Shown here one piece after another: positions 13,161-14,977 of a stretch of DNA of 64,000 nt. This DNA comes from a phage: the sequence record PZ534515.1. One strand, written 5' to 3'. The position numbers were made by a program, and so were the translations under genes. The notes beneath the pieces were generated by a model that saw nothing but the letters and a program-made list of their open reading frames with translations, had not been told where the DNA came from and searched no databases. Each line of letters begins with the position of its first letter. Position 1 is the first letter of the stretch.

Positions 13161-13261
13161 AATGACCTCAAAGTTATATTAAATTTTGTATTACATTGAG
13201 TATAAAAATAAGCTATAACACCTGACTTGTCAACAGATTTTATAGCTTATTTGGCAGATTT

Positions 13262-13536
13262 TTTATAAGGCTACTGCCATCCTTCCATACCATACCACAC
13301 CAAACCACACCATACCGAACCACACCCTACCAAACCCGACCAAACCCGACCGAGCATCACTTAAAAACCCTCTTAGAAGACTCTTAAGTGATGTAATCGA
13401 ATTTTAATGTAGCTCCGATTAACTACCCATACCTCACCTCACCCAACCATACCATGCCTTACCAGACCGCACCTTACCTCATTAAAAGACCCTCTTAAAA
13501 GACCTTTTAAAAAGGAGCCTCCGAAGAGGCTACCTA
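13262..13536 (-). ncRNA. structured non-coding element 1: A/C-rich tracts, 10-bp inverted repeat hairpin, conserved-loop hairpin, terminator
   Basis: ORF-free; modules catcacttaa...ttaagtgatg (13355..13393), aatcg-aattttaatgtagctc-cgatt (13396..13420), attaaaagaccctcttaaaagaccttttaaaaagg, terminator hairpin 13516..13531; all recur rearranged at 14671..14923. Confidence 0.45.
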
Positions 13537-13542
13537 GTCAAC

Positions 13543-13983
13543 TTAGAAAGGTTTTCTGCGTTGCTTGTTAATGTTAGCTTTCATAGCAGCTAAATGGTTT
13601 TGCTGTTCAATCAGTCGTGAACGTTCTTGATGACTAAGTGCCATAGTATTCACATTCTCAATTGCTTGAGTGGCTTGCTTTAAAGCTCGACCAATCTTAC
13701 CAGACATTTTACGTTTTGCAATAGTTGCTTGATGCTTAGGTTCAACCACACGATAACCAACACCCATTGAAGCAACCAGATAAATCTTCTCTTCTTTAAG
13801 AAGCTTCTCAATAAACTTCTCAAGTCGGTTTAGACGTGTAAGCGCATAAGCCTTCATTTCATCTTCGTACTTAACAATGTCACCTTGATAAGTTGGCTTC
13901 ACAATACCTAAGAAGGTATCCATCTCAGAGTGTGATACAGTGTCACCGTAACTAAACTTTGCTGCTAATGCTTTTGTATTCAT
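13543..13983 (-). CDS. hypothetical protein (in repeat-flanked cassette)
   Basis: 146 aa ORF, basic C-terminus. Confidence 0.5.
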   Translation of the reverse strand: MNTKALAAKFSYGDTVSHSEMDTFLGIVKPTYQGDIVKYEDEMKAYALTRLNRLEKFIEKLLKEEKIYLVASMGVGYRVVEPKHQATIAKRKMSGKIGRALKQATQAIENVNTMALSHQERSRLIEQQNHLAAMKANINKQRRKPF

Positions 13984-13985
13984 AA

Positions 13986-14573
13986 TTAAACGTTACCTTC
14001 TGAAATAACTTCTACAGAAAAACGACCAAAGCGTGGACGCCAATCACCTACACCGCAAAGGTTACCAGCATTTTCCAGAACCATCAAGAGTTCTTCTTTG
14101 GTAATTTGCTCTTCATCGAACATCAAACCGAACTCTACAGACCAGTCACGGAAGATTGGACGGTAGCTCATAACTCGTGCTGTGCCAATCTTAACAGACT
14201 TAGCATAGATAAAGTCTGGATTCTTAGCAAGTTCTTGTGGGTTTGCTGGACAGTTCTTGATAGTCATCGGGAAGACTACATCTGTCAGCATAATGGCTCG
14301 GTCAATTACCTTACCAAGTTTGTTGAGTTTTGCACCAGACTTGATACAAGCCTCAATCATCTCACCGTTCATAACAAAACCTAGCTGCTCATCGTAGTAA
14401 CAAGATGTTACCAGTTGGCTTTCTGCTAATAGCGCATAGTCTTCGTCAGTCTTTTTACGTTTACTGGACAGAGACTTGTGATATTTTGTCAGAGGGTTTA
14501 ATGGGTCTGACAGCGTATCGTTATGGCTCAGGAAAGGACGAGTACCAGTGATTTTGATATTTAACAGTTTCAT
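13986..14573 (-). CDS. hypothetical protein (in repeat-flanked cassette)
   Basis: About 195 aa ORF; start could be 14588 or 14573. Confidence 0.5.
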
Positions 14574-14670
14574 AGCATTTAGCTCCACACTTTAGTTGAT
14601 TGTTAAGTTGTTTGTAAAGAACCCTCAACAGAAGACTCTTTAGAAACTTGGTAGATTTTTAACGTGGCTA

Positions 14671-14923
14671 CTACCATCCACCCATACCATACTAAACCCG
14701 ACCTTACCTCACCTTACCTAACCTTACCCCAACCTACCCTACCAGACCAAACCTTATTAAAAGACCCTGTTTAAAGACCTTTTAAAAAGGTAAGTCTCAT
14801 TTTAATGTAGCTGAGACTAACTACCCGCACAGAACCTAACCGGACCCGACCTGACATAACCGGACCTAGCCTTGCATTGCCGTACATCACTTAAAAACCC
14901 TCTTAGAAGACCCTTAAGTGATG
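14671..14923 (-). ncRNA. structured non-coding element 2 (paralogue of element 1)
   Basis: Same modules as 13262..13536 in different order; hairpin agtctc-attttaatgtagct-gagact has compensatory stem changes relative to element 1. Confidence 0.45.
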
Positions 14924-14977
14924 CTGGTGAGTACCCGTTGGTTTATGCTGCTCAGTATACTCACCAAATTTTCTATG

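Follow-up and report, generated by a model that had tools for sequence, protein, structure and literature searches.

What is encoded in the two A/C-rich segments that bracket a small gene cassette in the phage record PZ534515.1? The window analyzed here, a stretch of 64,000 nucleotides from that record, belongs to a Felix O1-like phage (Felixounavirus). Its segments 13161-13542 and 14589-14977 are free of open reading frames (ORFs) and bracket two minus-strand genes for proteins of 195 and 146 amino acids. An earlier note on this DNA had described the ORF-free segments, long A/C tracts, a 10-bp inverted repeat (module ii), a hairpin with a conserved loop (iii), and a further module (iv), all of which were found again where it had placed them. 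We are confident that positions 13202-14981 of this Felix O1-like phage make up an entire VIPR locus, of type II and of the SUSP1 clade, equipped with four guides against satellite islands of Escherichia coli. VIPR (Viral Interference Programmable Repeat) was described in two 2026 preprints (bioRxiv 10.64898/2026.04.26.720920 and 10.64898/2026.04.26.720927). According to these, Vipr is a minimal RAMP protein, and its RNA partner, the vrRNA, has 9-16 YNNGG repeats and, at its 3' end, a structured tail. Each repeat is occupied by one Vipr protomer, which sequesters GGY and presents NN; the NN dinucleotides pair with double-stranded DNA, one target base is skipped per unit, and binding silences transcription. 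VIPR was reported as non-contiguous-code RNA-guided DNA recognition and proposed as an ancestor of CRISPR RAMP proteins. The feature studied here is therefore an already known one: its system has been described from a near-identical phage.

The A/C tracts, in which the earlier note had seen only a biased composition, obey a strict 5-nt period. A pattern of five ACCNNACC units with at most one mismatch matched 31 times, always within four plus-strand tracts, and a minus-strand pattern of six GGYNN units matched 38 times, always within the same four tracts; zero matches were expected in 64 kb for either pattern. Neither scan detected a YNNGG pentamer tract elsewhere in the window. Read on the minus strand, the units have the form Y-N-N-G-G. 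Among 50 units, Y was a pyrimidine in 50, the first G was conserved in 46, and the second in 49, and the two N positions showed a near-uniform base composition. Among relatives, NN was hypervariable while the flanks stayed conserved.

The same layout tiled exactly four times: a 39-nt box, a tract of 10-14 units, and a 34-nt tail. The resulting minus-strand vrRNAs were named U1, U2, D1, and D2, with guide tracts of 12, 14, 10, and 14 units, respectively. U1 (14793-14884) combines 12 YNNGG units at 14825-14884 with a type B tail at 14793-14826; its NN code reads AC AA AA TA CC TA CA CG CC TA TC GC. U2 (14650-14751) comprises 14 units at 14682-14751 and a type A tail at 14650-14683. D1 (13395-13476) comprises 10 units at 13427-13476 and a type B tail at 13395-13428, and D2 (13253-13354) comprises 14 units at 13285-13354 and a type A tail at 13253-13286. 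The two elements are indeed paralogous, as had been suggested.

The earlier note had also considered the G/T-rich transcribed strand capable of forming G-quadruplexes, and it may be asked whether the tracts act as DNA or as a by-product of transcription, either through such quadruplexes or through an R-loop that a G-rich non-template strand would form behind a promoter, as in T4-type or ColE1-type replication origins. The extreme GC skew of the tracts and the promoter-like boxes directly upstream of each of them would agree with this explanation. Conservation, on the other hand, was position-specific (GGY fixed, NN free) rather than compositional, G runs were mostly just two long, and no link of the site to replication was found here. 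In addition, a RAMP RNA-binding protein accompanies such tracts in unrelated phages, and published structures place the guanines in pockets of the Vipr protein (bioRxiv 10.64898/2026.04.26.720927). The repeat tracts alone had unremarkable folding energies in three of four cases, which fits an unstructured, protein-bound guide and argues against a G-quadruplex role. The tracts are thus better read as GGY/NN pentamers with protein-held guanines, and we attach almost no probability to a function as R-loop or quadruplex DNA.

All four vrRNAs end in a 34-nt tail composed of a hairpin and a pseudoknot. The conserved-loop hairpin of the earlier note corresponds to the tails of U1 and D1 (type B); its loop, ATTTTAATGTAGCT, occurs exactly twice, at 13401 and 14799, on stems that differ and yet remain complementary. 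Both hairpins are real, but they are half of the set: two further covarying hairpins had been missed, GGCAG/CTGCC in the D2 tail (13253-13286) and GGTAG/CTACC in the U2 tail (14650-14683). The pseudoknots are formed by GTGG/CCAC in the U2 tail and by AAGG/CCTT in the D2 tail. The four tails, together with the tail type of vrRNAs found in satellites (see below), share one gapless scheme in which a 5-6-bp hairpin (columns 9-14 with 29-34) surrounds the loop AGCyA..AAAAT, and four bases 5' of the hairpin pair with the loop (columns 3-6 with 17-20). This loop pairing exists in three versions, GUAG/CUAC, GUGG/CCAC, and AAGG/CCUU.

In 12 distinct tails, 93% of the cells of this scheme were paired as compared with 72% in shuffles and 31-45% in slid controls, figures that are to be read with the scheme having been derived from the same sequences on which pairing was scored. 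Nine of ten pairs were altered on both sides. The compensatory stem changes claimed earlier are real and point to selection on RNA structure; the proposal of a structured non-coding RNA on the minus strand stands with them. A structured tail, as expected of type II VIPR of the SUSP1 clade, was present in each of the 34-nt segments. A scan of 12900-15300 against Rfam with E values up to 10 returned only chance snoRNA matches, and an early text search of the Felixounavirus literature for intergenic repeats gave nothing relevant.

The identity of the system emerged from the gene for the 195-residue protein (13986-14573, minus strand), directly downstream of which lies that for the 146-residue protein (13543-13983, minus strand). 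Neither protein matched any family in Pfam, and both belonged to families of unknown function in PHROGs, the 146-residue protein to phrog_5926. An exact scan of IMG/VR for seven consecutive ACCNN units yielded 120 loci. Many of these were plain microsatellites, and dozens were degenerate arrays with ACC fixed and NN free on unrelated contigs, including those of jumbo phages. As detected by tblastn, distant homologs of the 195-residue protein (22-45% identity) adjoin arrays in about 29 loci outside Felixounavirus, from which we deduced that the protein and the arrays form a conserved module; the 146-residue protein had tblastn matches in close relatives only. At least 520 homologs of about 190 residues with shared motifs were collected for the 195-residue protein, and the family profile matched one solved structure, PDB entry 36pp_D, "SUSP1 Vipr protein" (E = 3e-81). 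The protein is 97.9% identical to the phiSUSP1 protein by tblastn, and the 146-residue protein shares 99.3% identity with the product of vap1, which occupies the corresponding position in SUSP1. The genes are accordingly called vipr and vap1 (an accessory gene) here; binding of vrRNA by the RAMP-fold product of vipr is predicted from SUSP1.

Independently of the preprints, the fold pointed in the same direction. An AlphaFold2 model of Vipr reached a predicted local distance difference test score (pLDDT) of 94.6, and its best PDB matches in Foldseek were the RAMP proteins Csm3, Cas7, and Cas6. The sequence of the G-loop was conserved across the family. Nine residues, His17, Lys33, Glu71, Met72, Arg138, Cys173, Asp177, Trp178, and Arg179, were all present at the same positions in Vipr of the window; the cryo-EM preprint names these as the RNA or DNA contacts that hold GGY and the skipped target base (bioRxiv 10.64898/2026.04.26.720927). 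A homolog of SUSP1 Vipr, itself a single-RRM RAMP with a G-loop and a thumb, the contact residues, vrRNAs with unit numbers within the range of 9-16 flanking vipr, and an adjacent vap1, the features that define type II VIPR of the SUSP1 clade, were therefore all found. Once the neighbor had been recognized as Vipr, several candidates entertained for the tracts were dropped: an R-loop origin, a TRAP-like array, a rut site, an iteron or DNA-bending array, primase sites, and BREX or restriction decoys.

Long (ACCNN)n runs in other architectures were seen at L020, a 189-kb contig with at least eight arrays, and at L035/L080, L090, L096, L097, and L119. Some of the arrays on these unrelated viral contigs are blocks of 10-12 units bounded by ACCTGCC, and others have a spacer of constant sequence and about 24 nt, ATAAAAATTTCTCGCCAGAGAAACC, between them. 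These architectures probably represent other VIPR types.

Two known systems invite comparison. The backbones of class 1 CRISPR-Cas complexes (Cas7 or Csm3 on crRNA) resemble VIPR in the RAMP fold, to which the best structural matches belonged, in the use of one protomer per RNA repeat unit with a thumb that interrupts the guide-target duplex periodically, and in a variable guide part capped by a constant structured part. VIPR differs in its period of 5 nt with 2 pairing bases, as opposed to 6 nt with 5 in CRISPR, and it reads its target with a 1-nt skip, is carried by a lytic phage, and lacks a nuclease. Repeat analysis of the locus revealed no repeat-spacer array, and its only two genes, neither in Pfam, include no cas1 or cas2. 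The second system is TRAP of Bacillus, an 11-mer around which the trp leader RNA is wrapped with 11 (G/U)AG triplets and 2-3-nt spacers. Here too, a protein oligomer reads a conserved triplet about every 5 nt on single-stranded RNA. The two proteins have unrelated folds, the spacers are devoid of information in TRAP and constitute the guide in VIPR, and a closed ring serving attenuation contrasts with a helical filament serving DNA targeting.

This likeness raises the question of whether the tracts are an array for a TRAP-type attenuation protein or, on the plus strand, a Rho-loading (rut) site, regulating the flanking genes in either case. A triplet with a 2-nt spacer repeated 10-14 times does look like a TRAP site, and the plus strand is C-rich and G-poor. 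The genes and promoters, however, are all on the minus strand, the conserved triplet is GGY, and the adjacent protein has the RAMP fold and falls into no Pfam family, that of TRAP included. Moreover, the NN positions carry target information, for which an attenuator has no need. We regard regulation of this kind as extremely improbable and return to the VIPR locus and its targets.

In the SUSP1 clade, targets could be identified for 20 vrRNAs, 18 of which are directed against a satellite of the phage, and satellites are remarked to encode vrRNAs of their own (VIPR preprints). When the locus was compared with 5,426 complete E. coli genomes by BLAST, vrRNA-like sequence was found in unannotated chromosomal DNA of 149 of them. 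It lay in satellite islands with a length of about 11 kb, inserted either between the genes of the pairs wrbA/ymdF or tonB/yciI or beside yecD. The genes of these islands code for a large serine recombinase, for baseplate and tape-measure proteins, and for an HNH endonuclease, along with small unknown ones. Related islands were present in 546 of the 5,426 genomes. Each vrRNA was converted to its NN code and scanned with 0-3 skipped bases against ten sampled islands, the cut-off of the preprint authors being 80%.

All four guides scored best with a 1-nt skip, on the same satellite family, in agreement in silico with the skip rule of the SUSP1 clade. U1 matched 20 of 24 NN positions (83%) in an intergenic site (L129:11582-11616). 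U2 matched 25 of 28 (89%) on the minus strand of L134:8093-8133, a site that spans the ribosome-binding site and the ATG of a gene for a 236-residue satellite protein, and D1 matched 18 of 20 (90%) at L133:8179-8207, about 120 bp upstream of the U2-targeted gene. The best site of D2, with 22 of 28 positions (79%), lay in the serine-recombinase gene, with the skipped bases on wobble positions (L135:3496-3536). Three of these targets fall within one regulatory region of about 550 bp plus the start of the adjacent gene. The other skip rules (0, 2, and 3) gave at most 64-75% of NN positions. Permutation of the unit order reached the observed score in 1 (U1), 0 (U2), 1 (D1), and 2 (D2) of 300 trials.

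Within the phage window itself, the sole 1-nt-skip match of at least 80% was one of 16/20 for D1, most likely due to chance in view of the many 70% matches produced by the same guide. Exact scans of IMG/VR gave one further satellite variant for a U1 sub-pattern, no match for a U2 sub-pattern, and, for a 10-unit sub-pattern of D2, one match that agreed at 3 of 8 unforced positions, as by chance; such scans are too strict for natural targets, which match at 80-90%.

The U2-targeted satellite gene (L134:7401-8111) has homologs in L128, L129, L131-L133, and L135, which are mostly annotated as "transposase," and its product matched no Pfam family. The gene heads an operon with the tape-measure and baseplate genes, and three of the four guides target its start region. 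Single vrRNAs were seen in five of the ten sampled islands (L127:15004-15100, L128:15004-15110, L129:15000-15095, L130:8154-8240, and L132:12556-12655); each has a sigma-70 promoter of its own, about 50 nt upstream, and ends in a third tail variant with the stem GTCG/CGAC. No vipr or vap gene was found in the ten islands. A satellite vrRNA would thus need the Vipr of the helper phage, which fits the remark on satellite vrRNAs in the preprints.

By analogy with SUSP1, the locus would work as follows. Four vrRNAs of about 80-100 nt would be transcribed from the minus strand, each with 10-14 YNNGG pentamers and a 34-nt hairpin-pseudoknot tail. Vipr would polymerize along the RNA, one protomer per pentamer, into a helical filament with GGY buried and NN exposed. 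The exposed NN would pair with double-stranded DNA, every third target base being skipped, and the bound complex would block transcription. With the guides aimed at satellite islands in E. coli chromosomes, three of them at a single operon, namely its regulatory region and its start, the phage would silence a parasite of its own infection. For SUSP1, vrRNAs of about 100 nt, their co-purification with Vipr, and repression of targets were demonstrated by small-RNA sequencing, pulldown, and GFP and phage assays (VIPR preprints). Homology, RNA anatomy, covariation, and in-silico targets were observed in the present phage; vrRNA expression, filament formation, the skip rule, and repression are expected from the SUSP1 preprints at 98-99% protein identity.

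Several points weigh against this assignment. Three units of U1 are degenerate, with TG for GG. The D2 match lies just below the authors' cut-off, D1 is short and A/T-rich and has a high background, and the target scan extended to ten sampled islands. The ends of the vrRNAs are predicted, their expression and their binding by Vipr in this phage are transferred from SUSP1, and the literature behind the assignment comprises two preprints by a single group. Finally, the 39-nt box is a candidate promoter, operator, or processing signal. Some of these points would suit a decaying or inactive VIPR remnant, whose RNAs are made and guide nothing useful and whose apparent targets are due to chance: the degenerate U1 units, the D2 match below 80%, and, in addition, about 112 relatives that are devoid of vipr and vap. 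Against such decay, neither vipr nor vap1 is disrupted, both share 98-99% identity with the SUSP1 genes, whose activity was shown by experiment, and the contact residues are kept. The preference of all four guides for the 1-nt skip on one satellite family, equaled by 0-2 of 300 permutations, and the clustering of three targets likewise speak against chance. We therefore consider a remnant very unlikely and retain the interpretation as a complete VIPR locus.

The likeness to SUSP1 VIPR (type II; PDB 36pp) extends beyond the two proteins. The neighborhood of ligase, vrRNA, vipr, vap1, vrRNA array, and 127-residue-protein gene is alike, as are the YNNGG design, the tail types, the boxes upstream of the vrRNAs, and the predicted prey, a family of E. 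coli satellite islands. The loci differ in the distribution of vrRNAs, two upstream and two downstream here versus one and three in SUSP1, in the NN codes and hence in the exact target sites, and in the carrier, Felixounavirus here and Suspvirus there. Nothing categorically new follows from this, but three central claims of the preprints were independently reproduced with another phage: that Vipr genes and GGY/NN arrays are linked in unrelated phages, that one target nucleotide is skipped per unit, and that satellite islands are the prey. The case also shows that a VIPR locus can be recognized in raw sequence by reading it unaided.

The residual novelty lies in cassette polymorphism mediated by the 39-nt box, in orphan vrRNAs, and in the role of the box. 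Modules ii and iv of the earlier note are two versions, b-type and c-type, of one box with the shared core GTCTT..A.AGGGT.TTTTAA. It stands directly before each of the four tracts on the minus strand: as b-type before U1 (14885-14923) and D2 (13355-13393), and as c-type before U2 (14752-14790) and D1 (13477-13515), module iv being present twice in the locus in the repeat analysis as well. The b-type box contains the 10-bp inverted repeat CATCACTTAA-N19-TTAAGTGATG, exact at 14885-14923 and present also at 13355-13393, its direct-repeat partner. A degenerate fifth copy (14610-14646) just upstream of vipr overlaps a weak minus-strand promoter, TTTACA-18-TAAAGT at 14589-14618, the two together covering 14589-14646. 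No copy was found elsewhere in the 64-kb window, and a role as a general phage promoter was rejected because of this absence. A sigma-70 promoter was likewise rejected: the best -10-like hexamers had no A at position 2, and a consensus scan made no call. The preprints do not address the role of the box.

The earlier note had expected the cassette to be present or absent in relatives precisely at the repeats, and this was borne out. About 118 Ounavirinae records encode Vipr, and about 112 others have a short intergenic region between ligase and the gene for the 127-residue protein like that of phage JH2. In JH2 (an Escherichia phage; L137:1456-1600) and ST11 (a Salmonella phage; L138:1497-1650), this region holds the strong promoter described below, one box of the b-type, and just one vrRNA, whose tail is of the D2 type; vipr and vap are absent. 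It corresponds to 13253-13393 and 14885-14988 of the window. The alignment breaks inside the box, 14988-14884 and 13393-12300 of the window aligning with an overlap on the 39 nt, as expected from recombination between the direct copies 14885-14923 and 13355-13393. The notion of the elements as recombination flanks thus holds for the position of the junction. It fails in that they are not mere flanks: they supply the guides for the protein whose gene they bracket.

The box might serve as a recombination module through which vrRNA cassettes are swapped, gained, or lost among Felix O1-like phages and perhaps satellites, and an orphan vrRNA might function with the Vipr of a co-infecting phage; we put this forward tentatively and rate it as possible rather than probable. 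If true, the orphan vrRNA of the approximately 112 relatives without vipr would amount to "guide-only" parasitism of an RNA-guided system. Neither orphan vrRNAs in phages without vipr nor the box as a recombination module is mentioned in the preprints. For work on VIPR, the additions are a cassette that is polymorphic at a 39-nt direct repeat and leaves an orphan vrRNA, and the same box before every vrRNA and vipr.

Further signals for transcription were found in the locus, all on the minus strand. A strong sigma-70-type promoter, TTGACA-16-TATACT (14954-14981; 11 of 12 consensus positions), lies upstream of the whole locus; read as 14981-14954, it is about 60 nt upstream of U1, and it is kept in the relatives without vipr. 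Behind vap1, a terminator-like hairpin, AGCCTC-TTCG-GAGGCT (13516-13531), has a T-run that is the start of the next box. At the downstream end, an AT-rich imperfect hairpin of 19 bp followed by T's (13202-13252) holds in its loop TTGACA, the -35 hexamer of the next promoter, TTGACA-17-TATTTT, which belongs to the 127-residue-protein gene. It may be the terminator for vrRNA D2, overlapping the next promoter.

Every gene of the region is carried by the minus strand, and the order of transcription is DNA ligase (16305-15166 in the gene list), a basic 62-residue ORF (14978-15166; phrog_5428) between the ligase gene and the VIPR promoter, vipr, vap1, and, downstream of the locus, the gene for the 127-residue protein (13160-12777 in the gene list). 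The 62-residue ORF is present in some relatives including SUSP1 and is absent from JH2 and ST11, in which the ligase stop codon abuts the promoter. The region had matches in 248 phage records, with identities of 80-99% that were mostly in the range of 90-99%. Nearly all of these records are from Felix O1-like myoviruses, Felixounavirus and its relatives, with Escherichia, Salmonella, and Shigella as hosts. Two records under other names, GU169904.1 (Staphylococcus phage SA1) and MG065668.1 (Campylobacter phage A126), matched Felixounavirus DNA here at 92-95% identity, which suggests that they are contaminated or mislabeled database entries.

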